A DNA stretch of 64,000 nt from Candidatus Doudnabacteria bacterium. Lineage in GTDB: Bacteria > Patescibacteriota > Doudnabacteria > UBA920. The stretch's first letter is position 1; the number at the start of each line of letters is the position of its first letter. Made by a program: the position numbers and the translations under genes. Of this stretch, positions 1-49,574 are shown one piece after another. The notes below the pieces were generated by a model that was not told where the DNA came from, searched no databases, and worked only from the letters and a program-made list of their open reading frames with translations. The stretch spans positions 565,646 to 629,645 of the forward strand of contig CAWINB010000001.1 of NCBI GenBank assembly GCA_963837465.1. Reading direction: 5' to 3'.

Positions 1-191
1 GTTCAACTCCGCCCTGGCCAGTATCAAACATGGGAATAATTTTAGCCAGATCATTTTGTTCTTCTTCCTCGTAAATAACTTGTCGGATGTCGTCCAAGGT
101 AAAATCACTGCCGGCTTCTTTAAGCAAATCGGTTAGCTCCTGCTCAATTTCCTGCTTATGCTCAATAATTTGTTCGAGATTTTCCTGTTCC
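1..191 (-). CDS. hypothetical protein, N-terminal fragment (gene runs off the window start)
   Basis: Minus-strand ATG at 189-191 opens MEQENLEQIIEHKQEIEQELTDLL... with no stop before position 1; lies 15 nt downstream of the stop of 206..1354; absent from ORF track because incomplete. Confidence 0.3.
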
Positions 192-205
192 ATACCCAAG
201 CAATT

Positions 206-1354
206 TTATGCTAATTCTTTTATTTGGCTCAGCCCGTCTTTAATCATGTTAACATTATCAATTACAAATCCTGTAATTTGCCCAACAGTAAAGTCAGAGT
301 TCAATAAAACGGAACGGTAAAAATCGGTCTCGCCGTATTTATTAAACATTTTATCTCCCATTGGATATTCCTTAAGGTTGCCGCCAATGTGGACAAAATT
401 AAACCACAATTTTTGTTCTAAAAGAGATTCGGCAACTTTTTTTGATCCCTTGCCGTAACCGGCGTAACCCTGCACCATTTGCCGGTAGTGGTCGCCCTGA
501 ATTTGTACCGTAAGGAACAGCCCCTTTTTCAGGACATAAGCCACGTCCATCATGCCTTGGGCATGGGATAGGCCTGATGAAAAATAGTAACCCCCTTCTT
601 TCCTTCCCGCATCCTTCGGCTTCCCAGGCATGGCGTCTTTGAAGCGGTTGATGCCGTCTTCAAAAAACACTTCCGCCTCAGGAAAGGCATTACGTAATTT
701 TTTACAAATTTCAACGGCCAGTATCTGGTACTTGAGTTTTTGGTAAATGTCGCCCATGCGCAGATCGCACAAAGCGCCGTAGGTATTATCATTGGTTATG
801 GAGTAAAAACTAAATTTATCATTGGGCTTAACGGTTATGTCTTGAAAGATTTTGCTTAAAGCAGATATAACGAAAATGTAGTCCTTAATGATATGGCTAT
901 CGTAGCTATCGTCCAAGTTTGAGTAGTTGCTTTCCATTAAGGCTGCCAGTTCCGCGTAAGTCAGCTTGGCCCAACCATCAGGAAGATCAAAAGACGGCTC
1001 AATCAAAGTTAGCAGCAGGAAATTTTGATTGACTGACGAATTCTGGCTGTAATATTTTAGCTGTTCCAGATTAGGCAGGCTTTTTACCTTATTTTCTATA
1101 ACCAGCTCTTGGCCGTTGGCAAAGAATAGGCATATATCTCGATTTTTCGCTTCCCGCTCCGTGCGGATTACAGAGGCATTGCCGTTTTGGTCTTTCAAAA
1201 ATTTTGAAAATAATTTACCAGTCTGCTGGGGATATTTTTCCGCCAGCCAAGCTATAAAATTGCTATGAAAAAGCTCTTTTGAACCAAGTGAAAAATTAAA
1301 AACTGCTGAGTTTTTAAGACCCTGTTTCAATTTTTCAATTTCTAAAATTTCCAC
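206..1354 (-). CDS. hypothetical protein with PD-(D/E)XK-like nuclease motif
   Basis: 382-aa ORF; D..E-x-K pattern (NRDICLFFANGQELVIENK) typical of PD-(D/E)XK nucleases; no specific family recognised. Confidence 0.5.
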   Translation of the reverse strand: MEILEIEKLKQGLKNSAVFNFSLGSKELFHSNFIAWLAEKYPQQTGKLFSKFLKDQNGNASVIRTEREAKNRDICLFFANGQELVIENKVKSLPNLEQLKYYSQNSSVNQNFLLLTLIEPSFDLPDGWAKLTYAELAALMESNYSNLDDSYDSHIIKDYIFVISALSKIFQDITVKPNDKFSFYSITNDNTYGALCDLRMGDIYQKLKYQILAVEICKKLRNAFPEAEVFFEDGINRFKDAMPGKPKDAGRKEGGYYFSSGLSHAQGMMDVAYVLKKGLFLTVQIQGDHYRQMVQGYAGYGKGSKKVAESLLEQKLWFNFVHIGGNLKEYPMGDKMFNKYGETDFYRSVLLNSDFTVGQITGFVIDNVNMIKDGLSQIKELA

Positions 1355-1364
1355 AAAATTATTA

Positions 1365-1733
1365 TTATCTTTTTTTAGACGAGGTTATAGTGTCCATGGA
1401 ACATTTGCCGGTAAAAGAAGCACCTTCTTCTACTTTTAAGGTTGGGCAAATGATGTCACCGCTAACTTTGGCTGTGGATAACAAAATCAACCGCCCGGAG
1501 ATGTTTATATGGCCCTGTACTTCTCCAGCGATAACCGCGCTTTCAGCCTCCGTCTCAGCCGTAATTTTCGCATTCGGGGTTATAGATATTGTTTGAGTGG
1601 TTGCAATCTTACCTTCAACACGGCCTTCAATTTTAATACTGCCTTGGCTGGTCAATTCTCCTAGTATAATGGCCGAAGGACCGATCACGGTTTCTGTTTG
1701 TTCCTCCAAAGTGTCTTCAAGTTTTTTGGCCAT
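1365..1733 (-). CDS. bactofilin family (polymer-forming cytoskeletal) protein
   Basis: 122 aa with beta-helical repeats IKIEGRVEGKI / VIAGEVQGHINISG / AKVSGDI characteristic of bactofilins. Confidence 0.8.
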   Translation of the reverse strand: MAKKLEDTLEEQTETVIGPSAIILGELTSQGSIKIEGRVEGKIATTQTISITPNAKITAETEAESAVIAGEVQGHINISGRLILLSTAKVSGDIICPTLKVEEGASFTGKCSMDTITSSKKR

Positions 1734-1920
1734 AAACTCCTTTTCGCTAAAGGTTATAAATTTAAGTCGTTTATATCAATCCCGGCTTCATCGGCTCGCT
1801 CCAAAGTTTCGTCAGCGTCACCATTTAAAATATCTTCGCCAAGCTCGTCCTTGAAGCTATTGCTATCAGGTTCTTGTCTGCTTTTATCATCCAGGTCTTT
1901 AGGTAACATAAATTTATTAT

Positions 1921-2926
1921 TTAATTTTTTGCCAACAAACGTTCCCTAATTTCATCAATATGCACTGACCTGCTTTGGTCTGCCGGAAAAATCTCTCTCA
2001 TGCTATAAGGGAAATATCCGCAAAGGCCTTCCATAATCGGCAATGCGTAATAATGTCCACCGCGCTCAAAATTCTCTCTAAAACTTTCTGGGGACGCTGT
2101 GCTAATTACGTAGATTTTTAAACCATAATTTTTTACCCCGTCAACCAAAATTTTATTGATATGCTGGTCTTTGAAGCCGTAACCTATAATCACCAATCTT
2201 TTATTTCCTTCTTTTATAACATTTTGGAATAGCTCAAAATAACACTTCAACAAAGGCTCACGCTCAATATCTTCCTCTTTATTTTTTCCAATCACCATTT
2301 GATTTAAGCCATTAGACGACCTCCACCCGTAGGAGCCGTGAAGTTTTATATAAACAAGCCCATTGTGATCGGCTATGCCTTTTTCTACTTTTTCGGAAAC
2401 CGCATCAGATGATAAGGTCACAAAAAAATTACTTTGGAATTCCGTACTTCTAAAATTATAAAAATCCTGTGGGGAAAAAAGGAGCGCCGGGGGAACGATA
2501 ACGGTATTCCCGTTCCATAAATAAATCTTGGTTTAAAGTAAAATGAAACCCTCTCTTTTGGCCATTTGCGGGTTGGAATAGATTCATCAAATCGCCATTC
2601 AAGCCGTAAATGTTAAAGGCAGTTGGATTATCGTTATTAAAAATCCAATTGCGAGTAGCGTCATCAAGTTTTTTATAAACAGCCTCTACTACCTGTTGCA
2701 TGGTCTGTTTTTCGCTGTCGCTAAACCCATTGCCGCGCAACACCCGCGAATAGACATCTTCATAGTCAAAATTTTCTCTTAAGAGGTTAGCTATGTTTGG
2801 GGTACTTTGAATGGCCGAGCTGTTGAAAATTTTTGACCACATTTCCTTGCCCAAAAAACCGTTAAAATTTTTGGTAAAGCCTGCTCCGGTTAGAAGTATT
2901 AAATTTTTTGATTGCCATTTTGCCAT
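1921..2926 (-). pseudogene. SIR2-like (SIR2_2 / DHS-like NAD-binding) protein, split by a frameshift into ORFs 2456..2926 and 1921..2421
   Basis: N-part has GAGFT glycine motif; C-part starts at GTG and has LVIIGYGFKD and YIKLHGS (catalytic His) motifs; frames differ by 1 around G/A homopolymers at 2470-2495. Confidence 0.65.
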
Positions 2927-2942
2927 AAATAAATCATCAGGA

Positions 2943-3944
2943 TTAACTGCCTACAGTGGCAGTTTCAGCTTTTTCTAAATGCTGTTTGATATTTTCCCAA
3001 AGTTTAATAAAATATAGTCTTGCAAATTCCTGGGCGGAGTGTTTTTGATAGCTTAAGTTTTTTAATTCTTCTAAATTTTGGTTTAAGCTTTGTAGTGTAA
3101 ACTGACTTTTGAATAAAATTAACGCTAATTCAACAGTTGAATTAAGCTGCTGGTCTTGGCTCTCAAACATCATGCTCGATAACTGTTCGTCTGTTATATC
3201 CCCGCTAAAAGCATACGGCCGGCCGTATGACCCAAAAGTTAGCTGCTCTTCAATTAATCCTTTCATCCTATCGTCATTCATCCAAGGCTTAAAAACAAAG
3301 GTTAATATTGCAGCCCATGCTTCCGGTAAAGTTTCGGGAAATAATTTTTTAGCAAGGTAATCCAAGTCTGGATCGTACTCATTTTTAGAATTAACCCAAA
3401 GTTTATTTCTAAGCAAATCTGTAAATTTTTCAAGGGTTACTTTTTGTACTATACTATTTTCCTTTATCCCAGCTAAAGTCACTAACCATTCATAGGGAAA
3501 ACGTTCCCATATATTGTTGTTAAACCTATCGCGAATTTTTGTAACTTCGTCAAAAAAGTTCCGATAAAAGTCAGGTAATATTTCTTTGGCATAGTACCTA
3601 TTAATATTATTTACAATCTTTTGTTCGCCCTTAAATTTTTCTACATGTTTTACAAGCGCATCAAAAAAACCATAGACGGTTATGTTTCCTTCGGCAAATA
3701 TTCTTTTTTGGATATATTCAAAAATTCCAACAAGGATAATACGTAACTGATTGTACTCTGACCAAGTTTCTCTTTTGCTCTCATCTTTCGGATCTAAAAA
3801 CTCCATTTCTTTTTGCCAAGTATTAAAGCGCCAATCTAAAACAACTGGTAAAGCTTTATAAGCCAAAAAGAAACTAGACCTTTTTTCTAAAGAGGTCTGA
3901 AAGTCGCCTAACAATTTTGATGAAAGTTTTAAATCTTCAATCAT
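2943..3944 (-). CDS. hypothetical protein
   Basis: 333-aa ORF, 16 nt upstream of SIR2 gene, overlaps stop of next gene by 4 nt; no recognisable motif. Confidence 0.55.
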   Translation of the reverse strand: MIEDLKLSSKLLGDFQTSLEKRSSFFLAYKALPVVLDWRFNTWQKEMEFLDPKDESKRETWSEYNQLRIILVGIFEYIQKRIFAEGNITVYGFFDALVKHVEKFKGEQKIVNNINRYYAKEILPDFYRNFFDEVTKIRDRFNNNIWERFPYEWLVTLAGIKENSIVQKVTLEKFTDLLRNKLWVNSKNEYDPDLDYLAKKLFPETLPEAWAAILTFVFKPWMNDDRMKGLIEEQLTFGSYGRPYAFSGDITDEQLSSMMFESQDQQLNSTVELALILFKSQFTLQSLNQNLEELKNLSYQKHSAQEFARLYFIKLWENIKQHLEKAETATVGS

Positions 3945-4435
3945 GGTTTATTAAAGAGTTGGTTTACGGTATCAACAAAAATTGTAAAAAATTCGCTTTC
4001 ATTTTCGGAATTTATTTTATCTGAATTCCAAACGGAACTCCAGGATTCTTCAGCATCTTTGGAATTAGTTAGTTTTCTTAAAAAATCAAATCGCAATGGA
4101 AATTTATTTCCTTTGAGCCATTGGTAAGATTTAATAAAGGATCGCCCTAGCAACACAACCCCACCAGCCCATAATAAAAGTTCGATGAATCTGAAAATAA
4201 TGCTTGAGTTATGCCAAAAGAAAACTGGTAAAAAAATCATGGCTAAATAAAATAGTAGCCCTTTTGAATCAATTACGTGATCCAAAATAACATGGTTATC
4301 CAGTTCCCTAAACTCGTTTTCATGATCAAAAATAGCTATAGCAACTGGGATTAAAATGGTAAGGCACGCCAGCCCAATGTTTTGAGCAAGTGCCGGAAAA
4401 TCATTGTTGCATAATAGAGAAAAAAGAAAAGGCAT
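3941..4435 (-). CDS. small integral membrane protein (3-4 predicted TM helices)
   Basis: 164 aa with hydrophobic stretches LACLTILIPVAIAIF, LLFYLAMIFLPVFFW, LLLWAGGVVLLG. Confidence 0.55.
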   Translation of the reverse strand: MPFLFSLLCNNDFPALAQNIGLACLTILIPVAIAIFDHENEFRELDNHVILDHVIDSKGLLFYLAMIFLPVFFWHNSSIIFRFIELLLWAGGVVLLGRSFIKSYQWLKGNKFPLRFDFLRKLTNSKDAEESWSSVWNSDKINSENESEFFTIFVDTVNQLFNKP

Positions 4436-4495
4436 TTTGTCTTATTGGCTAAAAATATTTCTGTACTAAAATATTAAAAAAATAATTTTTATAAT

Positions 4496-5587
4496 TTATT
4501 TCCCCGACTTAGTTCTATTATCTTGTTTGCATAACATCTGACAATTTTTTGAAACTGTTTTTCCACCCTCGTGCCAAGGTTTTATATGGTCAGCTTCCAT
4601 TTCGGAAATATCAAATTCTTTTTTACAAAATCGGCAAAAACCATTCTGTCGTTCATACGCCTCGCGCTTCATTTTGTCAGTAAACGCGCGGATAGAAAGA
4701 TAGTTTTCCTGCCTGGTTAAAACATACGGATAAATGCCAGACTTTTTGGTCACGTCTTCGTCTTGCATTAATTCTTTGACTTCGTTTTCCAGTTTTTTGG
4801 AATTAAGCTTTACGCCTTTAAATTCGTTATACAGTTCTCCCCACTGCACATCGCCCATCTCTTTGCGATAATTAGGAAAAGTTGCGCGCGCCCACTCAAT
4901 CACCATTTGAAAATATTGCCATAGTTGGTCGGCATTTTTGTCGTGCTGATGTTTGGCCATGTAACCCTCTATTTTGCCACCATTAATCCAAGAAAGCACA
5001 GTCTCTAAATAGTCCTGCCTGATGGGTGATCCATTCATTAACTTCCCTCCGTCGTTTGCCAAAAGATAGGCCACGCAATTTGTTTTGCTAAATTTTAACT
5101 TCGCATCAGAAAGCCACGGACCAGTATAAACTGCATTGCGTATCTCCTGCTGGGTAAGTTTTTCCCCCGAAATATTTATTATGGTAAACCAGTCAATCCG
5201 TTCCTTGTCCGTGCCCTCGCAAAAATAAATCATTAGCTCATAATCCAAAATCTGATTCTTTTCTTCATCGGTTAGGTTGTGAAAGTAAAGCTCGTTGAGT
5301 GAAAAATCGCCGTGTACATATTGCCCAATGCTGATAGTGCGCTGCTGCCCATCAAGGACCTCATAGTTGTCGGCGTCGATTTTCATCCAATACATCACAT
5401 TCAACGGAAAACCCTTTTTAATTGTCTCAATTACCGCGTCGCGCTGCTTGCCGCTATAAACAAATTCGCGCTGGTATTTTGGACGGATATCAAGTTTGCC
5501 ATTGTAAGCCACTACGCCTTCTTCCGAGCTGTCTTTATAGCCGGTAGCGATTTTTCGAATTGTAATGCGATGTAATTCTATTTTCAT
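4496..5587 (-). CDS. DUF262 (ParB-like nuclease) plus C-terminal HNH endonuclease; GmrSD-like type IV restriction-type protein
   Basis: DGQQRTISIG motif of DUF262; C-terminal HIKPWHEGG...CQMLCKQDNRTK HNH motif. Confidence 0.8.
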   Translation of the reverse strand: MKIELHRITIRKIATGYKDSSEEGVVAYNGKLDIRPKYQREFVYSGKQRDAVIETIKKGFPLNVMYWMKIDADNYEVLDGQQRTISIGQYVHGDFSLNELYFHNLTDEEKNQILDYELMIYFCEGTDKERIDWFTIINISGEKLTQQEIRNAVYTGPWLSDAKLKFSKTNCVAYLLANDGGKLMNGSPIRQDYLETVLSWINGGKIEGYMAKHQHDKNADQLWQYFQMVIEWARATFPNYRKEMGDVQWGELYNEFKGVKLNSKKLENEVKELMQDEDVTKKSGIYPYVLTRQENYLSIRAFTDKMKREAYERQNGFCRFCKKEFDISEMEADHIKPWHEGGKTVSKNCQMLCKQDNRTKSGK

Positions 5588-5600
5588 AACTATTTGTTCA

Positions 5601-6569
5601 CTATCTCTTTTTAATAAATAATCGTTTGAATGTTTCCTTCTTATTCAAAAATGAGCCTCTGCCGTAGACCCCATTTAGATCTTGATCTATACCGCGATTT
5701 GATCCCACAATTTCGAATTGTTCAGGATTATATCTATCAAGAAAAGTTACCGGCACGCCCATCACCCCATTATAATTCATCGGGATTTCCGAAAATTTTG
5801 ACACCTCAATCGCATCATAATTATCGTATATAGGGTATTCTTTTACACTGTATTTTTTATATAAGTTTAATTTCTCATGACGCTTCGTTGTATCCAGATT
5901 TGTGAACCACATAATACTTCCCATGCTAAAATACTTAATACCGTTCTCAACTTTTACTCTTGACTCTGTTGGTATGTCATAGTCAGCAGGCACCTGAAAC
6001 CATTTCGTTCCGCCATTATCGTAACCGAGCCACATCTTATTTTCTTTTATAAATTTAAATATTTCCTTATAAATAATGGCGTTTTGATTGCCGAGAACCA
6101 AAAACTTTTTATTGTATTCAAAAAGTTGTGCGATGTATTCGCGAAATAAAGAAAACGGTGGATTAGTAACCACGATGTCGGATTGTTTTAAAAGGCTAAT
6201 GCATTCTTGACTGCGGAAGTCGCCAGTACCTATCATCTGGGTTATAAAATCATTTGGATCAGGCAAACGACTACCTTTTTTCCCGCCGGTATACTCCAGT
6301 TTATAAGGTTGCTCATGGGTAAAAAGGTTGGCCTCTTTGTAGTGCGTGGCGATTAGTTTTTTAAGCCCCAGGTCTTGAAAGTTCAAAGTAAAATATTTAA
6401 CAAAGTTGCTTTCTTTTGGATCGTCACAGTTGCAAAAAACGACCTTGCCGCGGAATTGATCCTTGTAGTGCTTTATCTCATTTTCAATATCAGTAAGCTG
6501 AGTATAAAACTCATCTTTTTTTGCGTGGCTTGCTTTGTTCAAGTTTTTATTTAATATTTTTTTGATCAT
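5601..6569 (-). CDS. N6-adenine-specific DNA methyltransferase
   Basis: IVVTNPPF catalytic motif IV; 13 nt upstream of DUF262-HNH gene. Confidence 0.65.
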   Translation of the reverse strand: MIKKILNKNLNKASHAKKDEFYTQLTDIENEIKHYKDQFRGKVVFCNCDDPKESNFVKYFTLNFQDLGLKKLIATHYKEANLFTHEQPYKLEYTGGKKGSRLPDPNDFITQMIGTGDFRSQECISLLKQSDIVVTNPPFSLFREYIAQLFEYNKKFLVLGNQNAIIYKEIFKFIKENKMWLGYDNGGTKWFQVPADYDIPTESRVKVENGIKYFSMGSIMWFTNLDTTKRHEKLNLYKKYSVKEYPIYDNYDAIEVSKFSEIPMNYNGVMGVPVTFLDRYNPEQFEIVGSNRGIDQDLNGVYGRGSFLNKKETFKRLFIKKR

Positions 6570-6738
6570 AGGCTTGCGGACGGAAATATAGCGACATTAA
6601 TATACTTTAATTTTATCACTTTTCCTTGCTTTTGGTAAGCCGGAAAATGAGGAGTTTCCAAGGGTTTTGGCGGGCTGGACAAGGCACGTGGGTTGCGTCA
6701 TTCATGTCTTGTAAGCAACTAACCAGAAAGGAGAAAAT

Positions 6739-8085
6739 ATGCAAGGATTAAGGACAAAACAGGCGGTCGGGCTGATAGACCAATCAGCCGCGCCGCCGCA
6801 AATAGCAGCAACGGTCAAATACTGCCTCTACAGCAGAAAAAGTTCCGAGGACGACGAACGCCAGGCGCTGTCCATAGACAGCCAAATTAAGGAGATGCGG
6901 GCCATGGCCCAGCGCGAGAATATGGAGGTGGTGGAGGTAAGAAAAGAAAGCCACTCTGCCAAAGCCTCGGGCATGAGGCCGGTCTACAATCAACTCTTAG
7001 TAGACATAAGAGCCGGAATGTTTAACGGAATTTTGACCTGGGCACCGGATAGGCTCTCCCGTAATGCCGGAGACTTGGGCGGGTTGGTAGATCTGATGGA
7101 TCAGGGCTACTTAAAAGAAATCCGTACCCATGGCCAAAGATTTACCAACTCACCAAACGAAAAATTCCTGCTGATGATTTTATGCTCTCAAGCCAAGCTA
7201 GAAAACGACAACCGCGGCATTAACGTAAAGCGCGGGCAGCGGGCAAGGCTGGATACTGGCCATCGGCCATGCCTGGCTCCCATAGGTTACCTGAACGAAA
7301 AAATCGGTTACCGCGGAGGGAGCAAAATCATAATAGACCCGGATAGGTCAAATTTTGTAAAACAGATGTTCGACCTAGTGGCCAACAAATTCTACACCGG
7401 CAGAGCTATATATAATTGGGCTAAAGAGGTGGGGTTTACCACCAGAAGCGGCAAGCCGGTGGCTTTAAGCAGTATTTTCCGGATGCTGGGGTCTACCTTC
7501 TACTACGGAGAGTTTGAGTGGCCGGTGGGCAGCGGGCAAATCTACCAAGGCAACTACCCAGCCTTGATAACCAAAGAGCTGTTTGAAAAGGCCAGAAAAA
7601 ATCTGATGACTGCCCCTAAGTCCAAGCCCGGAACTAAAGAGTTTAATTTTACCAAGCTGTTCTACTGCGGCTCCTGCCACAGCGGCATCACGGCCGAGGA
7701 CAAAATTAAATACCTTAAGGACGGGACGGTAAACAAATATATCTACTACCACTGCAGCCAATCCCAGGACTTGGACTGTCCCGAGCCATATATCAGGGAG
7801 GAAGACTTGCTGGAGCAGTTGATCAGTATCATAGATAAAATAGACCTGAATAAGTCCGGACTAAAGCAGCAGATAGACAGCGAGCTGGAACGGCTGCAAA
7901 GCTTTAGTAGCGGCATCTTAGGCAAGATGCTGACGGGCCAAGATCTGACCCAAAAGTTCAGCCCCAAAGAATATGCCAAGCATATTATCAGATACGGCAA
8001 CCATGATGAGAAACGCCAGCTGTTGCAATCCATCAACTCAAAAATTTACCTCAAAAACAGGAAGCTCAAGGTCGGTAAAAGATAA
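6739..8085 (+). CDS. large serine recombinase (integrase)
   Basis: N-terminal resolvase motif YSRKSSEDDERQALSIDSQ, recombinase domain, zinc-ribbon CGSCHSG; RBS aggaga upstream. Confidence 0.85.
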   Translation: MQGLRTKQAVGLIDQSAAPPQIAATVKYCLYSRKSSEDDERQALSIDSQIKEMRAMAQRENMEVVEVRKESHSAKASGMRPVYNQLLVDIRAGMFNGILTWAPDRLSRNAGDLGGLVDLMDQGYLKEIRTHGQRFTNSPNEKFLLMILCSQAKLENDNRGINVKRGQRARLDTGHRPCLAPIGYLNEKIGYRGGSKIIIDPDRSNFVKQMFDLVANKFYTGRAIYNWAKEVGFTTRSGKPVALSSIFRMLGSTFYYGEFEWPVGSGQIYQGNYPALITKELFEKARKNLMTAPKSKPGTKEFNFTKLFYCGSCHSGITAEDKIKYLKDGTVNKYIYYHCSQSQDLDCPEPYIREEDLLEQLISIIDKIDLNKSGLKQQIDSELERLQSFSSGILGKMLTGQDLTQKFSPKEYAKHIIRYGNHDEKRQLLQSINSKIYLKNRKLKVGKR

Positions 8086-8206
8086 AGTACCCAGGACTCG
8101 AACCAAGGGTTTAAGCGGGATTTTTATCAAGAGGAGAGTTGGGAATCGAACCAAAAAACCCTAATAAAAATAGAAAAAGTTATTCAAAGTAATTTTTTAC
8201 AAAACA

Positions 8207-8238
8207 AAATCCGAGAGCGGTAAAGTTCTCGGATTTTG
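8207..8238 (+). terminator. hairpin aaaatccgagag/ctctcggatttt followed by tgtt
   Basis: perfect stem with T-rich tail about 120 nt after recombinase stop. Confidence 0.4.
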
Positions 8239-8305
8239 TTATTGACCCCATTTTCACGGTATAAGGCCCCTAGGGCACCTGGGTCAATTTTGAAACCTGT
8301 AATAG

Positions 8306-8712
8306 TGGCTCGGGAGCTGGGATTCGAACCCAGGACCCATCGGTTACACTTAACCCTAATATTTCTACTAGGCGTGGACTATATCATCATCCCCGATGGA
8401 GGGACGCGAGGCGCTTGGGTCGATTTTATCAACCTACTCCCATAAAGGGATAGTCTCTGAACCTTCAATGGCTTTCGCCAAAGTTTGGCTGCTGATTGCC
8501 TTGTGGTATTTATATACCAGTTAGGTTTCCAGTCCGCCTTCGTCTGCCTGTAGCAGATTATAGCGGATCCGTGCTATAAAAACAAATTATAGTTACGGGC
8601 AATTCACCTCGTTTTTCAATCTCAATTACTTGAGAAAGCTGCTAATTTTCAACTTATTTTGAGACAAGTTGACGGTCTACAGCCGATTGCTCTACCGCTG
8701 AGCTACTCCCGA
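8306..8712 (-). tRNA. tRNA-Asn(GUU) interrupted by a group I intron
   Basis: Exons 8679-8712 (TCGGGAG TA GCTC AGCGGTA GAGC A ATCGG CTGT) and 8306-8346 (TAA CCGAT GGGTC CTGGG TTCGAAT CCCAG CTCCCGA G CCA) join to a canonical 76-nt cloverleaf, anticodon GTT, discriminator G. Confidence 0.7.
8347..8678 (-). ncRNA. group I intron in tRNA anticodon loop (between positions 35 and 36)
   Basis: Conserved R element GTTCAGAGACTA (8448-8463 rc) and S element GATGATATAGTCC (8373-8390 rc); internal guide TTAGCAGC pairs with ligated junction GCTGT/TAA with G.U at splice site; ends in G. Confidence 0.7.
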
Positions 8713-8798
8713 ATATCACAATATTTAATTGTCTTTGGTAGTTTAACAAAACTCCCGGCTTTAATCAATAGCCAAAAGTAGGCGATATTTAAGGATTA

Positions 8799-8933
8799 CT
8801 AGATCTTGGCGCTTTCATCAACCTCTTCTTCCGTAACTTCCGGGCCGATTCTTAAAATTACGGCAAACCAGTAGAGCAGGAATCCGAAGATGCCTAAGGA
8901 GCCAAAGGATAAGATTGTTTCTATTATTCCCAT
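8799..8933 (-). CDS. possible 44-aa hydrophobic peptide
   Basis: MGIIETILSFGSLGIFGFLLYWFAVILRIGPEVTEEEVDESAKI; too short for ORF track; no other support. Confidence 0.2.
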   Translation of the reverse strand: MGIIETILSFGSLGIFGFLLYWFAVILRIGPEVTEEEVDESAKI

Positions 8934-9003
8934 ACAATTTTTAGGAACCTGCCTCAAAATTCCATTTTGGTTGAAACCGTGTAATTTTGAGATGGATTCC
9001 GTT

Positions 9004-10353
9004 TTAATTATTATTGCCTAAATTATTAATATCGGTTTGGTATTTGGCTGTTGTGGCCATGACGCTATCGCCGTAAAAACTGTAGGCCGGGTTGGTGCCT
9101 CCGGAAAAATAACGCATAGCCGCGTCCCAATCTCCCTGGTAAGTCCCGTCCGCGCCGCCAGCCGTAAGCTTTATGGCCGAGGCCAAAAAAGCGTCGCGGA
9201 TGTCCCAGGGGTTGGCCGGCTTGCCGGTAATGGCCGCGACTTTGGCTTCGTAGCCCACCCAGGTGGAAGGAATAAACTGCGCGGGCCCCATAGCTCCGCC
9301 CCAACCCTCCTGCTGGCCGTTTTTATCGCGCAGCGGGCAGGACACGGGAGTAACGTTTGGATCCAAACCCAAACTGGCTGTAATTTGCAAAAATGGCTGG
9401 ATGTCCCGGCTTGGCTTCATGACTACTTTATAACTCTTGCTTGGCGGGTCGCCGGGCCGGTTGCAAGTACCCACATTCTGGCCCAGGTTGGATTCCTGGG
9501 TTAAAATCGCCAGTAAAAAAGCCGGCTGGATGCCTGTCTGGGCCGAGGCCCACTGGGCAATCTGCAAAGCCTGGCCAAAATTAATCTGGCTGCTGACCCC
9601 GAGTAGCTGGTACAGACGGCTTTGAATGGCCGCGGCCTGCGCCTTGGTATCGTTAACCACAATCTGGTAGTCCGCCTCCCGGCCTTTGGTTTGCTGGAGC
9701 AAACTATTTTGCTGGCCCACAGTATCGCTGAGCTGGCTTTGCTGGAGTATGCTGATTGACAATAAATTTTGGTCATCCTGCTGCTCGGATTGCAACTGCT
9801 GCTGCTGCTGCGCCAGTTTCTGGCTGGCTTGATTTAGCTGGCCCACCAGTCCGGTCAGTCCGGTGGAAACCTGAGCGTAATCGGCGTAAGCGGAAAAGAC
9901 ATCGGAAAGTTTCTGCTCGCTGACCACGGTGTATAAAAACGAGTAGTCGTCATTTTCATTGATGGCTCTGATTATGGAAGAAACCTGTCCCCGCAGATTT
10001 TGGACCTGGGCATTGTTCTGGTCTATGGAATTTTCGGTCGCGGTAATCTGCCCGCTTAACTGATTGACCTGCAAATTGGTCTCCTGAATTTGCAAATTCA
10101 AAATTGCCTGCTGTTTTTTTAGCTGGTTGATTTTATTTTGCAGGGTATTTTTTTGGGCCTGGGTCTGGTCCAGTTGCTGCTGATACTGCTGAATTTGTTC
10201 CTGCAGCTGCTGCAGCTGCTGCTGTAATTGCTGTTGCTGCTGGTCCTGAGCGGGCTCTGCCAGCTGGGCCAGAGCCGCGGGAAAACCCGCTGAAACAAAT
10301 ATGAGAAAAAAAACAAGCGCTGCCGAAAAACTGACTCTTTTTAGAATAGTCAT
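9004..10353 (-). CDS. secreted Q-rich coiled-coil protein with C-terminal MltB-like lytic transglycosylase domain
   Basis: signal peptide, Q-rich heptads, C-terminal LTQESNLG ... AMGPAQFIPSTW motif of family 3 lytic transglycosylases. Confidence 0.8.
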   Translation of the reverse strand: MTILKRVSFSAALVFFLIFVSAGFPAALAQLAEPAQDQQQQQLQQQLQQLQEQIQQYQQQLDQTQAQKNTLQNKINQLKKQQAILNLQIQETNLQVNQLSGQITATENSIDQNNAQVQNLRGQVSSIIRAINENDDYSFLYTVVSEQKLSDVFSAYADYAQVSTGLTGLVGQLNQASQKLAQQQQQLQSEQQDDQNLLSISILQQSQLSDTVGQQNSLLQQTKGREADYQIVVNDTKAQAAAIQSRLYQLLGVSSQINFGQALQIAQWASAQTGIQPAFLLAILTQESNLGQNVGTCNRPGDPPSKSYKVVMKPSRDIQPFLQITASLGLDPNVTPVSCPLRDKNGQQEGWGGAMGPAQFIPSTWVGYEAKVAAITGKPANPWDIRDAFLASAIKLTAGGADGTYQGDWDAAMRYFSGGTNPAYSFYGDSVMATTAKYQTDINNLGNNN

Positions 10354-10586
10354 AATATAATAATAGCAATTTATGGCCTAATTTTCCATATCCGGATTTG
10401 GGGTTTGTTGCCAATTGTCGTTTTGATTAAAAATTCATAACTTTGGCCATTCGGCCAAAAAAATTTATCAGCTTAACCAAAAGTTAAACGTCAAAATTTG
10501 TTTTGACCGACTGCCTCAAAATTCTTAATTTTTACCCCAAAAGCCCATTTGGCAACAGGCCCTTTGCTAAAAAAATTAAACCCATC

Positions 10587-44091: not shown

Positions 44092-44508
44092 TTTTCCGCC
44101 TTAGCTAAAGCTATGGCGGATGAAAAAGAATTAAAATTTTCGGTTGATTAGTACTGCTCGGCTGAACACATTACTGTGCTTACACCTGCAGCCTATAGAT
44201 AGCGTTTAGTTATTAGCGTTTAGCGTCCAGTATTGCTACTATTCGCTATTCACTAACCGCTATTCACTATTTTGTTACGGGGTAGTCTTCCCCGAACCTT
44301 TTGTCACCGAAGTGACAACGAAACCTAGTTTTGTAGACGGCTTCACGCTTATATGCCTTCAGCGCTTATCCTAACTAGACCTAGCTACCCCGCCATGCCC
44401 TGGACAGGACAACGGGTACACCAGAGGTCTATGCTTTTCGGTCCTCTCGTACTAAAAAAGCGACTACTCAAGTTTCGCACACCCACAGCAGATAAGGACC
44501 AACACTTT

Positions 44509-44830
44509 GTTACAAAAGTAACAAAAATTCCAAATTTCAAATTAAAAATTTCAAACTGGAAAACACTTTGCTACTTTGGCATAAATATTTCTATTATGCT
44601 CTGCATGTCGCCATGCAGTTCGGACTATATCTTCAATGCATTATCCCGGCGGTTCATCCGGTATCGTAAAAATTTAAGATTGATAATTACAAAGTCTGGC
44701 GTGTAGTCTCTACGGGTTCCCTGGGATTGTTATGTATTCCCAAAGCCTTCCCTCGGTATTGTCTCACGTTTTCTACCATGAGAGTTTCACCGATTTAGCC
44801 AAATTTACAGACAGCATGGTTATTCCTTTT
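44509..44830 (-). ncRNA. group I intron 3 at the L2593-equivalent site (after GTGAGACAGT), no ORF
   Basis: R element GTAGAGACTACAC and S element GAAGATATAGTCCGAAC; exon resumes ...GGTCCTTATCTGC. Confidence 0.65.
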
Positions 44831-44908
44831 ACTGTCTCACGACGTTTTGAACCCAGCTCGCGTACCACTTTAATATGCGAACAGCATAACCCTTGGGAGC
44901 TTCTACAC

Positions 44909-44947
<39 letters not shown>

Positions 44948-45491
44948 TCTCGTCGCTGTGGACGCTTGGAGAGGATCAGCCTGTTATCCCTAGAGTAACT
45001 TTTATCCGTTGGGCTTTGCGTCTTCCACTCGAACGCATCGGATCACTAACTTCCACTTTCGTGCCTGCGCGGGTCGCTGCCCTTGCAGTCAAGCAGGCTT
45101 ATGCGTTTGCACTACCGGCATGATTTCCATCCATACCTAGCCTACCTTAATAAACGCCTCCGTTACCATTTAGGAGGCAACCGCCCCAGTTAAACTACCC
45201 ACGAGCCACTGTCCCAAAGCAGGTTAAACTTTGGTTAGCAATTTCATCTTTACAGGGTGGTATTTCACCTGTTGCCTCCATGCCAGCTGGCGCCGGCACT
45301 TCAAAGGCTCCCACCTAGGCTAAACAATAAAAATAAAATTGCAATGACACGCTATAGTAAAGCTTCATAGGGTCTTTCCGTCTTGCTGCGGGTAGACGGC
45401 ATCTTTACCGCCATTGTAAATTCATCGGAATGTTCGTTAAGACAGTTCTCTACTCGTTATGCCATTCGTGCGGGTCGCAACTTACGCGACA

Positions 45492-45812
45492 CAAAATTGT
45501 TACTTTGCAAAACCACATCGGTTACTGATTGAGCTCTGTGGCGCGCTAATCTTTCGATTAGCATCTGCATGTCGCCATGCAGTTCAGACTATATCATCTC
45601 GCCTTGTTGGCGAGTTCCGCGTATAGTCGTTGAGGATCCGTTAAAAAAATTCAACGTTTCCTGCGGATTGTCCGGACTCCAACTCGTTTTGTTGGCATCA
45701 CTGAAGCATTTTTACTTATAAATAAGTAGCTTCAGATACTTCCGGGGTTCCCCGCATACAGCGGAATTTTCCATTCTTTAATAAATATTAAAGAATGGTC
45801 CCAGTCGTGTTT
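45492..45812 (-). ncRNA. group I intron 2 in domain IV (after GGTAGCGAAATTCCT), no ORF
   Basis: Q element AATCCGCAGG, S element GATGATATAGTCTGAAC; P7-P9 block CTGCATGGCGACATGCAG shared with intron 3. Confidence 0.65.
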
Positions 45813-45838
45813 AGGAATTTCGCTACCATAGGACAGTT

Positions 45839-46574
45839 CATTTATGTTAGCTTTATGTTTCCATAAAGATCAGACTATATCATTCCACCAGATTGATGGA
45901 TTCGGCGTTTAGTCGTTGAGGGTTTTTACTAAATGATTCTTTAAAATTTGTTAAATTATGTTTTCGTGTTCTTCCTTTTCCTTCATTTAAGCCTTCACGA
46001 AGTTTTACTATTTCTAGCAAGCCTTCGGAAGTTAAGTGTTGGTTTGCAAAAACTAGTTTTGCAATTTTAGAAAATAACGAATAGTTTCTTTTTTTAATTG
46101 CGGACAAGAAACCGAACCGGTCAAAGAAAGGGATTATTCTTTCTTTGAGTGCTGTATGATTTTGAACAATATATTGATGTACTCCATCTTTTCTATGGTC
46201 AATGCGACCACAGCCTAAATGATGCTTCAATAATGCAAGTACGGTAATATCTTTTTGAGAGACATTAAACGTTAGAATAACTTGCCATAATACTTTACTG
46301 TCAGTTCGTTTACGAAGGGAAACGTTAAAGCTTCCTTCTCCGTCTACAAAACCTGCAAAGTAATTTCCAAATTCAACAGGAATTTGTTTTAACCAATTTT
46401 GATCCATAAAGTTTCCTTTTGAATCGTTTAGTAAATCTTCCCTGCGGATTGACTGTATCTTGTAAATTTTTACTGTCATATTTCAGACGAGTATTACAAG
46501 TTTTAAGCACGTCGTTGTCCACGCGTGCACAGTTATTCCCGCAAATAGCCAAATTTTATAACTACAACATGTTC
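45839..46574 (-). mobile_element. group I intron 1 at the L1917-equivalent site (GTAACTAT|AACTGTCC) carrying a homing endonuclease gene
   Basis: Q element AATCCGCAGG at 46441-46455 rc, S-like GGAATGATATAGTCTGATC near 3' end; separated from intron 2 by a 26-nt exon (45813-45838). Confidence 0.7.
45880..46479 (-). CDS. LAGLIDADG homing endonuclease (intron-encoded)
   Basis: FAGFVDGEGSF motif; ORF lies entirely within intron 1. Confidence 0.85.
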   Translation of the reverse strand: MTVKIYKIQSIRREDLLNDSKGNFMDQNWLKQIPVEFGNYFAGFVDGEGSFNVSLRKRTDSKVLWQVILTFNVSQKDITVLALLKHHLGCGRIDHRKDGVHQYIVQNHTALKERIIPFFDRFGFLSAIKKRNYSLFSKIAKLVFANQHLTSEGLLEIVKLREGLNEGKGRTRKHNLTNFKESFSKNPQRLNAESINLVE

Positions 46575-46758
46575 ATAGTTACTGCCGGCGTTCATCAGGG
46601 CTTGGCCGAGCGGCTTGCGCCACCCGGTTTAACCTTCTGACACTGGCCAGGCATCAGCCCGTATACATCAGCTTGCGCTTTAGCACGGACCTAAGTTTTT
46701 GGTAAACAGTCGGAGGAGATCTTTCGCTGCGGGCCTAATTTATATGCTGGGTAATGAA

Positions 46759-47227
46759 GATATTTGAGACAGCAAATATCAAACTGTTTAAAAAATCAGG
46801 GTTAAGATTTTCCAAAGGAGGGTGTGTGGTACTCATCGCGGGTTCGAGCCGCAACAATTCAATCAAACGTGAGGTTAATCCGTCCGATTTATAACACACT
46901 TATCCCTCCTTTGGTACGGAGTTGACGGGTCCTAGGACGCCTAGTCGAGAAGGCAACAATGGTCTGTTGCCGACAAGACTATTTTTTCATCTACTCCGAA
47001 CTGGTGCATCGGATGGGAGTTGAACCCATACTGACACGGCTTAAGAGACCGCCGCTCTGCCCTTGAGCTACCGATGCGATTGTTTAAATCAAACAATCAA
47101 AACTTTCACCATAAAGAGTGATTACATTCTCACTTTGCCTCGCGGCTTATCTCTTTACTCAGAACGGGTATGCCTTTAACGGGCCGTATCTTTTCTAGGA
47201 GTCTTTATGGCAAACTCTAAAATTTTT
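46759..47227 (-). other. 469-nt insertion in 23S helix 63 region flanked by an 18-bp perfect inverted repeat
   Basis: arms tatatgctgggtaatgaa (46741-46758) and ttcattacccagcatata (47228-47245); flanking sequence matches E. coli 23S about 1700 and 1770. Confidence 0.5.
47002..47077 (-). tRNA. tRNA-Lys(CUU)-like cloverleaf embedded in the 23S helix-63 insertion
   Basis: GCATCGG TA GCTC AAGGGCA GAGC G GCGGT CTCTTAA GCCGT GTCAGT ATGGG TTCAACT CCCAT CCGATGC A CCA; perfect 7-bp acceptor and 5-bp T stems; anticodon stem has two G.U pairs. Confidence 0.5.
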
Positions 47228-47823
47228 TTCATTACCCAGCATATAAAAAGGTCAAGGTATATACCGAAGGTACACCTGCTTTTTTGCCGAGTTCCTTAAC
47301 GAACATTGTTCCGGACGCCTTGGGATTCTCTCCCCATCCACCTGTGTCGGTTTACGGTACGGACACTTTATAACGTGACTTCGACGCTTTTCTTGACACC
47401 TTGATTCACACTAATTCCCGTTGCCAGGTTTCTTCTTATTTTCGAGATTGTAACCGGACTTTACATCTCTCGCGAGGCAGTAAAGCCCGAAAAAGAAATT
47501 CCGGATTTGCCTGGAATTTCACCCTACGAATAAGACAACGCAAATAGTCAGATTACGCCAGTGTTATCATGATGCGTCCCGCCTAAGATAATTATAAAGT
47601 GGTTACGGAATATCAACCGTATTTTCCATCGGATGGACCCCTTGGGGCCCACTCTTAGGATCGACTAACCCAGGGACGACGATCGTTGCCCTGGAAACCT
47701 TGGATATTCGGCGAAGAGGATTCTCACCTCTATATATATTACTTATTCCAACATTCTTACTTGTACACTGTCCACGGCCGCTTACGCATACCGCTTCAAC
47801 CTGTGTACAACACTCCTCTACCA

Positions 47824-47938
47824 CTTGTGCGAAGCACAAGCATCCTTGATCCTTTATCATTTATCCTTGACCAACTGCGGAGCTGCAGCGGTAAAAGATA
47901 AAGGATTAAAGATAAAAGATACTTGTGCTTCGCACAAG
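47824..47938 (-). other. intervening sequence (IVS) in 23S helix 45
   Basis: 17-bp perfect stem cttgtgcgaagcacaag / cttgtgcttcgcacaag enclosing AT-rich hairpin at the canonical IVS site. Confidence 0.6.
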
Positions 47939-48020
47939 TCCACGTCTTCGGCACCTAGCTTAGCCCCTATATATTGTCGGCGCAGGATCGCTTGACCAGT
48001 GAGCTGTTACGCTTTCTTTA

Positions 48021-48057
<37 letters not shown>

Positions 48058-48829
48058 GGGCAATCCCACATCCTTTACACTATAGCTAGGATTTGGGGGC
48101 CTTAGACGGTGGTGTGGATTCTTCTCCATTTGTCTGGTGGAGCTTAGCCCCCACAGACTGACTGCCAGATTCTTGACCTTAAGAATTCAGAGTTTGGTTG
48201 GAGCCTACCGCTTGCGCAGCAGGTTTCCATTCAGTGCTTTACCTCTTAAGGGAACATCTGACGCTAGCCCTAAAGCTATTTCGAGGAGAACCAGCTATCA
48301 CCCGGTTCGATTGGAATTTCTCCCCTACGCACAGCTCATCCCCTATTTTTGCAGCAATAGTGGGTCCGGACCTCCCGTTACTTTTACATAACGTTCATCC
48401 TGGCCATGCGTAGCTCACGCGGGTTTCGGGTCTAACTCATGCGACATATAGGAATAGAATTATGAATATGGAATTATGAATTAGGAATACTGCGAATGCA
48501 GTCCCATAATTCTTAACTCATACTTCATAATTCTCATCCTATTACGGACTATTCATCCTCGCTTTCACTGCACTTTCGTCTTTGATAAGACTTAAGTAAG
48601 CCGCACAAGATTAACTCGTTGGATCATTCTTCAATAGGCACGCGGTTACTCACTGCTTCGCAGATGAGAATTTCAAATTAAAAATTTCAAATGTCAAATG
48701 AACTTGCAAGCTGCAGCCCTTTTGAAATTTGTAATTTGATATTTGACATTCCTAACTGCGAAGCAGTCAGAGCTTCCACTCCTTGTAAGTATACGGTTTC
48801 AGATACTATTTCATTCCCCTTCCGGGGTG

Positions 48830-48870
<41 letters not shown>

Positions 48871-49025
48871 ATATGAGTATTTAGCCTTGGATCTTAGTCG
48901 ACCCGATTTCCGACCAGATTTCTCGTGTCTGGTCGTACTCAAGTTTAAAGTTCAGGAAATTGCATGGTTTTTCGCGATACGGGACTATCACCCTCTTTGG
49001 TCCGCCGTTCCAGGCGTGTTCTGCT

Positions 49026-49235
49026 AAACAGCAAACATAATTCCCAGCCCCTTTACAGAGGGGCAATGACTTCCACTTATAACGCCATCTTAGCAACGAC
49101 TGTAATCTTTAATTCTCCGTCTTGCGACTTTGAAAACACTAAAATGGTTTGGGCTAATTATTTAGAGATTAGCGTTTAGCGAATTAGCGTTTAGTAACTA
49201 ACCGCTATTCACTATCCACTAATCACTAATAATAT
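49026..49235 (-). other. about 210-nt expansion/IVS in 23S helix 9 region
   Basis: about 60 nt in E. coli; contains tagcgtttagcg / taaccgctattcactat short repeats also present in 3'-terminal expansion 44190-44275. Confidence 0.5.
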
Positions 49236-49574
49236 ACTTCCGCGTTCGCTCGCCACTACTAACGGAATCTCTTTCGTACTCGCGTACGAATTGATTTATT
49301 TTCCACGTGCTACTGAGATGTTTCACTTCGCACGGTTCCCGCATATACCGCCCCACGGCGGCACAGCACGCGCTCTTCCAGCGCGTGGGTTTCCCCATTC
49401 GGACACCCCCGGATCAAAGCTTGTTTGCCAGCTCCCCGAGGCTTTTCGTCAGGCTACAACGTCCTTCATCGGCTCATATTACCTAGGCATCCACCGTATA
49501 CCCTTATCTATTTTAATTCTATCCGCGAATTGTCATCTGTCTTAAAAAAACAGACGCGCGATCCGCGGTTTATT

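Follow-up and report, generated by a model that had tools for sequence, protein, structure and literature searches.

Bacteria of the candidate phyla radiation (CPR) rely mostly on restriction-modification (R-M) systems for defense. Among characterized defense proteins, the nearest relative of the gene that concerns us here is the SIR2 subunit of SIR2-HerA (also Nezha or GAO_19), and the GAO_19 SIR2 requires a second protein, HerA or pAgo (PMC11514479). We examined a SIR2 gene and its neighbors at one end of a 64,000-nucleotide stretch of DNA, called the window below, from a Candidatus Doudnabacteria bacterium (assembly GCA_963837465.1, contig CAWINB010000001.1, positions 565,646 to 629,645, forward strand). 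A first-pass annotation of the sequence had proposed that this gene, a small transmembrane protein, and a 333-aa protein form a novel defense system inside an integrative island. The evidence supports an island, but its gene order is conserved nowhere else. We consider it probable that positions 1-8712 of the window form the end of an integrative island that lies nearest the tRNA gene, in a genome of CPR/Patescibacteria type, and that the cargo stacks independent modules head to tail, each exchangeable by itself, and is not one system.

Cargo modules at the end of a probable integrative island

Ten co-directional open reading frames (ORFs) on the minus strand run from 6569 to the window edge, with intergenic gaps of -4 to 60 nt. 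The G+C content of this cargo region is 33-42%, against ~44-50% over most of the window. All of the genes in the first-pass annotation are present in the ORF list at their minus-strand coordinates, and the list holds one further ORF, of 51 aa. The integrative-island layout that had been proposed is also supported, since a recombinase gene adjoins a tRNA gene, the cargo is low in G+C (falling to 33-39%, with ~44-47% elsewhere), and orthologous recombinases are found beside tRNA genes with variable cargo. The genes that make up the modules are the following.

5601..6569, minus strand: Type II N6-adenine DNA methyltransferase of the EcoRI-methylase family, 322 aa, module 1 (PF13651, E 2e-124; PADLOC MTase_II, E 1e-117)
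4496..5587, minus strand: candidate restriction endonuclease, 363 aa, module 1 (N-terminal DUF262/ParB-like domain, GmrSD_N, and C-terminal HNH domain, from Pfam)
3941..4435, minus strand: membrane half of a TMH protein, 164 aa, module 2 (3-4 transmembrane segments in the hydropathy profile)
2943..3944, minus strand: soluble half of a TMH protein, 333 aa, predicted all-alpha, module 2 (no family match)
1921..2926, minus strand: stand-alone SIR2_2 gene, 334 aa when repaired, module 3 (split into ORFs 2456-2926 and 1921-2421 in different frames)
206..1354, minus strand: PD-(D/E)XK nuclease-fold protein, 382 aa, module 4 (PDDEXK_4, PF14281, E 4e-6)

The SIR2 gene has no conserved partner

To compare the surroundings of the SIR2 gene we used a linkage set of 89 loci that carry SIR2 homologs, with up to 10 kb of flanking sequence on each side (loci are cited by our own numbers, such as L002). 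When every other protein of the cluster was searched against these loci with tblastn, none had a match except the serine recombinase, which was found in 21 of the 89. Clustering the 1,426 ORFs that neighbor SIR2 in this set gave only two recurrent families, the recombinase in 23 loci and another in 12, and the rest are locus-specific. The genes immediately beside the SIR2 homologs vary in size, strand, and sequence, and we saw no HerA, TIR, or other known SIR2 partner in any of the 89 loci. The reverse comparison agrees, as SIR2 was not found in any of 56 loci that carry the TMH family, described below. The gene order on which the proposal of one novel SIR2 system rested is therefore conserved in neither set, and the proposal was not borne out.

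Two candidate partners were considered and rejected. Nine loci have a gene of 150-190 aa just upstream of SIR2, which could have been a conserved small partner, but these genes share no sequence relationship (they are DUF2726-like, TPR, and others), and DUF4238 is confined to one group of closely related loci and is not a general SIR2 partner.

The contexts in which SIR2 is found are varied. The closest homolog (68% identity, L002) is in an island flanked by two serine recombinases and a tRNA-His gene, with different cargo (AbiU2 HEPN, AAA ATPase). In four loci SIR2 is directly beside an ortholog of the window recombinase (47-56% identity): L014 (8747-11160), L015 (9537-12303), L071 (8677-10951), and L074 (2631-4923), and in L014 and L015 a tRNA-Gln gene is located ~0.1-0.4 kb beyond SIR2. 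This layout suggests minimal recombinase-plus-SIR2 mobile elements in which SIR2 is the sole cargo. Given that little besides the recombinase recurs in the 89 loci and that the contexts differ, we read the SIR2 gene as a free-standing cassette that would move between recombinase islands. A literature search on SIR2 defense in CPR found nothing relevant.

A further case of a variable island is that of a SIR2 homolog with 58% identity (L006/L030, GCA_023246565.1, JAHFIE010000003.1). Transposase_mut genes, a ParB_N protein, and a reverse transcriptase adjoin it, and a 1525-aa helicase-nuclease is found further downstream; on a near-identical contig of a second sample there is a bAvd gene as well, in the manner of diversity-generating retroelements.

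The SIR2 gene is interrupted by a frameshift

The first-pass annotation had described the SIR2 gene as split by a frameshift in a G/A homopolymer, and this is the case: the halves are in different frames, and one extra base in the plus-strand G4A6 run GGGGAAAAAA, at 2471-2480, breaks the frame. Deleting one base of GGGGAAAAAA gives a 334-aa protein that aligns without gaps across the junction to homologs of ~330 aa, reading PGAPFFPQDFY where the consensus is PGAPxFxQxFY. The assignment to the SIR2_2 defense type also held, because the repaired protein matches PF13289 at 39.8 bits (cut-off 24.5) and because the residues T13-G14-A15-G16 (GAG loop), N132 and D134 (TLNQD), and H196 (KLHGS), which are invariant in 20 aligned sequences, are all kept in the window copy.

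We found 955 database relatives of the repaired protein, the best of which are 322-341 aa long with 46-68% identity and 97-100% query coverage. They come mostly from metagenome-assembled genomes of CPR/Patescibacteria, and from other phyla too. An AlphaFold2 model of the repaired protein (predicted local distance difference test score of 89.7) has alternating beta and alpha elements, and Foldseek matches it to SIR2 structures at probability 1.00. To judge from these relatives, the gene belongs to a large family of SIR2_2 proteins that are short and stand alone.

Of the 89 SIR2 loci only L019 has a split gene too, with the break elsewhere, so the frameshift is not a conserved programmed event. 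We rejected programmed frameshifting because no homolog is shifted at this site. Being broken by the 1-nt insertion, the gene is in all likelihood not active in this genome. Its intact relatives, by analogy with other defense SIR2 proteins, may be NAD+-consuming abortive-infection effectors that work without a dedicated partner gene.

TMH is a family of fused and split membrane proteins

The 164-aa and 333-aa proteins belong to a family that we name TMH. The 333-aa protein looked like an ORFan in a word-indexed search, where its only match was to itself, but this was rejected after an exhaustive phmmer search of 1.84 billion representatives, which found 261 relatives, 188 of them with E values of 1e-10 or less. 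Among the best 149 of these, 90 are at least 440 aa long, and their C-terminal two-thirds match the 333-aa protein. The 164-aa protein is in turn matched by the N-terminal ~170-230 residues of 70 of these 90 fused relatives of ~500 aa (phmmer, best E 1.9e-47). Since the fused relatives match both proteins, the two genes encode two halves of one membrane-anchored protein, which in most of the family is a single chain of ~500 aa. Relatives of split size (290-350 aa) number 40 among the best 149, and tblastn found the 164-aa protein in 46 of the 56 TMH loci. In the window the stop of the 164-aa gene overlaps the start of the 333-aa gene by 4 nt, and the split form recurs in metagenome loci with ORF overlaps of 3-16 nt.

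The first-pass annotation had left both proteins without a family, and profile searches of the products of 3941..4435 and 2943..3944 likewise returned none; the family as a whole has no Pfam, PADLOC, or PDB match. The fold predicted for it is confident but unmatched, and the sequences share the motifs FPxEWK[VI]T and NLFPEVDPxxWA. The transmembrane anchor of 164 aa and the all-alpha domain of 333 aa would assemble at the membrane as one unit.

The genes around TMH are diverse, with a tendency towards R-M and mobility functions. A Type ISP R-M enzyme is directly upstream of a fused TMH gene in L094 (925-5616, gap of 1 nt) and of a split one in L133 (43-5029, gap of -3 nt), and in L137 (2164-9518) a Type ISP gene and then a KAP NTPase gene are upstream. 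In L114, an ortholog of the window recombinase adjoins TMH. The commonest Pfam families among 144 TMH neighbors within 3.5 kb are Eco57I (4), Type_ISP_C (3), N6_Mtase (3), Resolvase (3), and T1RH-like_C (2), to which PADLOC adds several Type I, II, and IIG matches. Because R-M genes and recombinases are the commonest identifiable neighbors, a role linked to defense is plausible. By its gene neighborhoods, TMH appears to reside in defense islands and is possibly tied in function to R-M.

The methylase and nuclease genes are a probable mobile R-M pair

At the upstream end of the cluster the methylase gene is 13 nt from the DUF262-HNH nuclease gene, whose product has a full-length match to PADLOC REase_II PDLC03418 (E 1e-134). 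Full-length homologs of the nuclease, with 52-61% identity, are found on plasmids of Aeromonas, Mammaliicoccus, Chryseobacterium, Sulfitobacter, Variovorax, and Gordonia, and in most of the plasmid records listed an EcoRI-family methylase is annotated immediately upstream. On plasmids the pair thus spans the Gamma-, Alpha-, and Betaproteobacteria, the Bacillota, and the Actinomycetota, and in the two plasmid regions that we inspected (Aeromonas and Mammaliicoccus) its surroundings are otherwise unrelated. We conclude from this distribution that the two genes make up, by all appearances, a Type II R-M module that is self-contained and widely mobile. The methylase would protect host DNA, and the nuclease would cut unmodified incoming DNA. 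We do not see the nuclease as a GmrSD-type enzyme working alongside SIR2; it belongs with the methylase in an R-M pair of their own.

The serine recombinase and an intron-containing tRNA gene

Two features border the cargo on its upstream side.

6739..8085, plus strand: large serine recombinase, 448 aa (Pfam Resolvase, Recombinase, Zn_ribbon_recom)
8306..8712, minus strand: tRNA-Asn(GUU) gene (exon 1 8712-8679, intron 8678-8347, exon 2 8346-8306)

The recombinase has the three domains of a large serine recombinase, and it matches a PHROG integrase at 1.7e-55. It is presumed to be the integrase of the island, which it presumably mobilizes. Its gene is convergent with the tRNA-Asn gene, which is likely the landmark or integration site of the island. 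In other CPR genomes, recombinase orthologs (47-56% identity) stand beside tRNA genes and variable defense-type cargo (L002, L014, L015, L017, L071, L074, L080, and L114), and the layout of a recombinase beside a tRNA gene recurs with tRNA-His (L002), tRNA-Pro (L008), tRNA-Gln (L014, L015, and L080), and tRNA-Gly (L066).

The tRNA-Asn gene has a 332-nt group I intron in the anticodon loop (Rfam RF00028, 53.3 bits, with a gathering score of 50). ARAGORN misses the unspliced gene, and from the spliced exons it calls a 75-nt tRNA-Asn(gtt), so that the intron-containing tRNA-Asn of the first-pass annotation is confirmed. A gene of this kind escapes standard tRNA finders, and our literature search for a group I intron in a bacterial tRNA-Asn found no report. 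Between the recombinase stop and the tRNA there are also two short fragments that resemble a tRNA T-arm, at 8100-8170 on the minus strand. One of them, GGTTCGATTCCCAACTC at ~8140-8160, is identical at 15 of 17 positions to the T-arm and acceptor of tRNA-Asn. These fragments could be remnants of earlier integrations, or a chance likeness to a generic T-loop.

Other cargo, the left edge, and the ribosomal RNA genes

The remaining ORFs of the cluster are three.

1754..1909, minus strand: very acidic ORF, 51 aa (from the ORF list; also called as a gene on L001)
1365..1733, minus strand: bactofilin, 122 aa (PF04519, E 6e-27)
1..199, minus strand: 5' part of a 102-aa ORF, cut by the window edge and completed on L001

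The acidic ORF has no family match, and neither it nor the bactofilin is present in any of the SIR2 and TMH comparison loci. The PD-(D/E)XK protein of module 4, which the first-pass annotation had recognized from its motif, aligns over residues 55-163 to positions 88-205 of the 397 in the profile of the PADLOC candidate PDC-S26 (E 1e-11), and the overall lengths are similar. In sequence it is thus distantly similar to this single-gene candidate. A full-length homolog (32% identity) stands alone on a Paenibacillus plasmid.

L001, a Logan assembly of ERR10755945, is base-for-base identical to positions 1-10508 of the window, including the frameshift, and extends 2,243 nt further, although it may derive from the same reads. 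Past the 102-aa ORF it has a Smr-domain gene and then a 488-aa Cas4-like/RNase_H_2 gene. A homolog of the 102-aa ORF (47% identity) is directly downstream of the TMH pair in L133, which is a single observation. Beyond the left edge of the window, at L001 12463-12744, there is a partial ORF on the opposite strand that ends with the motif SPSLAADVVTGRSSNGWISWKD and may resemble the DUF4357-type C-terminal domain of R-M-associated proteins. To judge from this ORF, the island may well extend further to the left. We did not find a second copy of the tRNA 3' end that could serve as an att direct repeat in the 12.7 kb of sequence at hand, which stops short of the left border. The core repeats that serine recombinases leave are very short.

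Elsewhere in the window, the 23S rRNA gene (44127-49518, minus strand) spans ~5.4 kb against a model of 2.9 kb, and it holds two group I introns, at 44601-44859 and 45565-45799. There is a call for tRNA-Lys(CUU) at 47002-47077, within the 23S span, and a tRNA gene nested in this way is odd. Insertion-rich ribosomal RNA genes are known in CPR.

Alternative readings of the cluster

Several points weigh against our reading of the cargo as a stack of independent modules. The ten genes are all co-directional and packed within the gaps given above, with no convincing internal terminator, so that they may be co-transcribed and functional cooperation may occur in this one genome; shared transcription would not make the cargo genes one system. 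A scan of the cluster for promoters and terminators was uninformative, with counts no different from those of shuffled sequence. Every island protein is a singleton in a 15-billion-protein collection, so there is no replicate of the exact arrangement that could be used for testing. The left end of the island is beyond the available data, and its borders and mobility are what we infer. If homopolymers are prone to error in the reads, the SIR2 frameshift could have arisen in the assembly. Finally, the loci behind the association of TMH with R-M are modest in number and in many cases on short contigs, and the association is given without a formal background model. The same tight packing, with only 16 nt between the 333-aa gene and SIR2, also favors the reading in which SIR2, the small transmembrane protein, and the 333-aa protein, perhaps with the bactofilin and the PD-(D/E)XK protein, form one new multi-gene SIR2 defense system whose NADase effector has been recently inactivated or is phase-variable. 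SIR2 does belong to the SIR2_2 family of defense proteins, and the cluster matches none of the Thoeris, DSR, or SIR2-HerA architectures. However, the proposed partners are present in 0 of 89 SIR2 loci and SIR2 in 0 of 56 TMH loci, the neighbors of SIR2 are heterogeneous, the transmembrane and 333-aa genes together encode a single split protein that has a distribution of its own, and the arrangement of the cluster occurs once in the databases. We therefore find a multi-gene SIR2 system highly improbable.

Whether the organism in fact carries an intact SIR2 gene is a separate question. The frameshift may be an artefact of assembly or sequencing, or reversible slippage, in which case the stand-alone SIR2 would be active; the indel does sit in a homopolymer tract, and the halves are otherwise undamaged, with no extra stops, the invariant motifs kept, and 68% identity to the closest homolog along the whole length. 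Yet the Logan assembly of ERR10755945 is identical at the frameshift (though possibly from the same reads), no homolog is frameshifted at this position, and the runs of four and six bases in G4A6 are shorter than typical phase-variable tracts, so we hold an intact gene to be rather unlikely. Still a little less likely is that TMH is a functional accessory of the R-M enzyme upstream, as a membrane-anchored regulator, sensor, or back-up abortive-infection effector, with modules 1 and 2 forming a three-gene unit. For this speak the TMH pair beginning 60 nt after the nuclease gene in the window, the tight spacing behind Type ISP enzymes in L094 and L133, the Type ISP and KAP NTPase genes in L137, and the frequency of R-M families among the 144 neighbors. 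On the other side, these R-M partners are of differing types (Type II in the window, Type ISP elsewhere), most TMH loci have no adjoining R-M gene (upstream genes include radA-like, trypsin-like, integrase, and DUF362), and plasmid copies of the same methylase and nuclease pair have no TMH gene. A general residence in defense islands explains the pattern equally well. A broader suggestion, which we make tentatively and would still call doubtful, is that TMH is a previously undescribed, widespread family (at least 261 clusters at 50% identity, both fused and split, with an anchor of 3-4 transmembrane segments and a novel all-alpha cytoplasmic domain) that is a new defense or abortive-infection module, or an R-M accessory, traveling in R-M-rich islands of CPR and other bacteria; and that, as a distinct matter, the stand-alone SIR2 of ~330 aa may be an NADase defense that needs no other gene and is carried as the sole cargo of small serine-recombinase elements.

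Comparison with known systems

The failure of the claim for a new SIR2-centered multi-gene immune system keeps a false lead out of follow-up cloning. A CPR serine-recombinase island that stacks interchangeable defense cassettes is an ordinary but instructive case. Besides the TMH family, it brings forward a large family of short SIR2 proteins that have no partner and are sometimes found in minimal recombinase-plus-SIR2 elements. If it is true that short SIR2 proteins defend alone, then how infection is sensed without a sensor domain or a partner becomes a real question.

For the SIR2 protein, the comparisons by profile and by fold lead to SIR2-HerA. A profile search with the repaired protein matched 8yhx (9e-11) and 8j4u/8su9 (2e-10), Foldseek matched 8sub/8sxx (E 1e-7, TM ~0.5), and the best PADLOC SIR2 models match as well. 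The GAG, N/D, and H catalytic motifs are kept. In contrast to the SIR2-HerA subunit, the window protein is ~80 residues shorter and has only 16-18% identity to it, and there is no HerA ATPase gene in the window or beside any of the 89 homologs, nor does any ATPase recur among their neighbors; a HerA match in the window (E 0.0028, in the N-terminal half of SIR2) is spurious. The requirement of the GAO_19 SIR2 for a second protein thus sets it apart from the short family described here, for which no second protein is encoded nearby. Thoeris ThsA and DSR1/DSR2 share with the window protein a SIR2_2-type domain in defense-island contexts and, by analogy, a presumed depletion of NAD+. No cluster gene has a Pfam or PADLOC match to TIR, SLOG, or ThsA/ThsB, and the PADLOC ThsA and DSR models give no score. 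The locus lacks both a SLOG or Macro sensor domain and a TIR ThsB gene and so is not Thoeris, and with 330 aa against more than 1000 aa and no large C-terminal sensor, it is not DSR. The first-pass annotation had recognized none of the Thoeris, DSR, or SIR2-HerA architectures, and the Pfam and PADLOC scans and the lack of partner genes agree with it.

The likeness of TMH to Kiwa (KwaA and KwaB) is in layout only, with a small multi-transmembrane protein followed by a soluble partner of ~320 aa in a defense island. The 333-aa protein differs in being predicted all-alpha, and neither the window proteins nor 39 TMH family members have a PADLOC or Pfam match to KwaA/KwaB (DUF4868). The nuclease of module 1 shares its N-terminal DUF262 domain (GmrSD_N, PF03235) with GmrSD and Type IV nucleases, but its C-terminus is a classical HNH domain (PF01844/PF14279). 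No DUF1524 family scored for it in the Pfam scan, and its gene stands in a pair with that of a methylase, so we do not count it among the Type IV enzymes of the GmrSD kind. It compares better with the plasmid pairs of EcoRI-family methyltransferase and DUF262 protein (PADLOC PDLC03297/PDLC03418), in which these two genes follow each other in identical order and their ORFs overlap or nearly do so; the difference is that here the host is a CPR bacterium and the pair is in a chromosomal serine-recombinase island.

Like the islands of the SCCmec Ccr type and the XisF type, this island has a three-domain large serine recombinase at its end, and the window recombinase has weak CcrB/XisF-like NCBIfam matches. 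It differs in adjoining a tRNA gene, and its score is far under the Ccr/XisF cut-offs (99.8 against 900 bits), so it is of a different subfamily. Taken as a whole, the locus is an example of a known thing, a defense island, and the leads that it offers are the TMH family, which is the most interesting, and the partner-less short SIR2 family.

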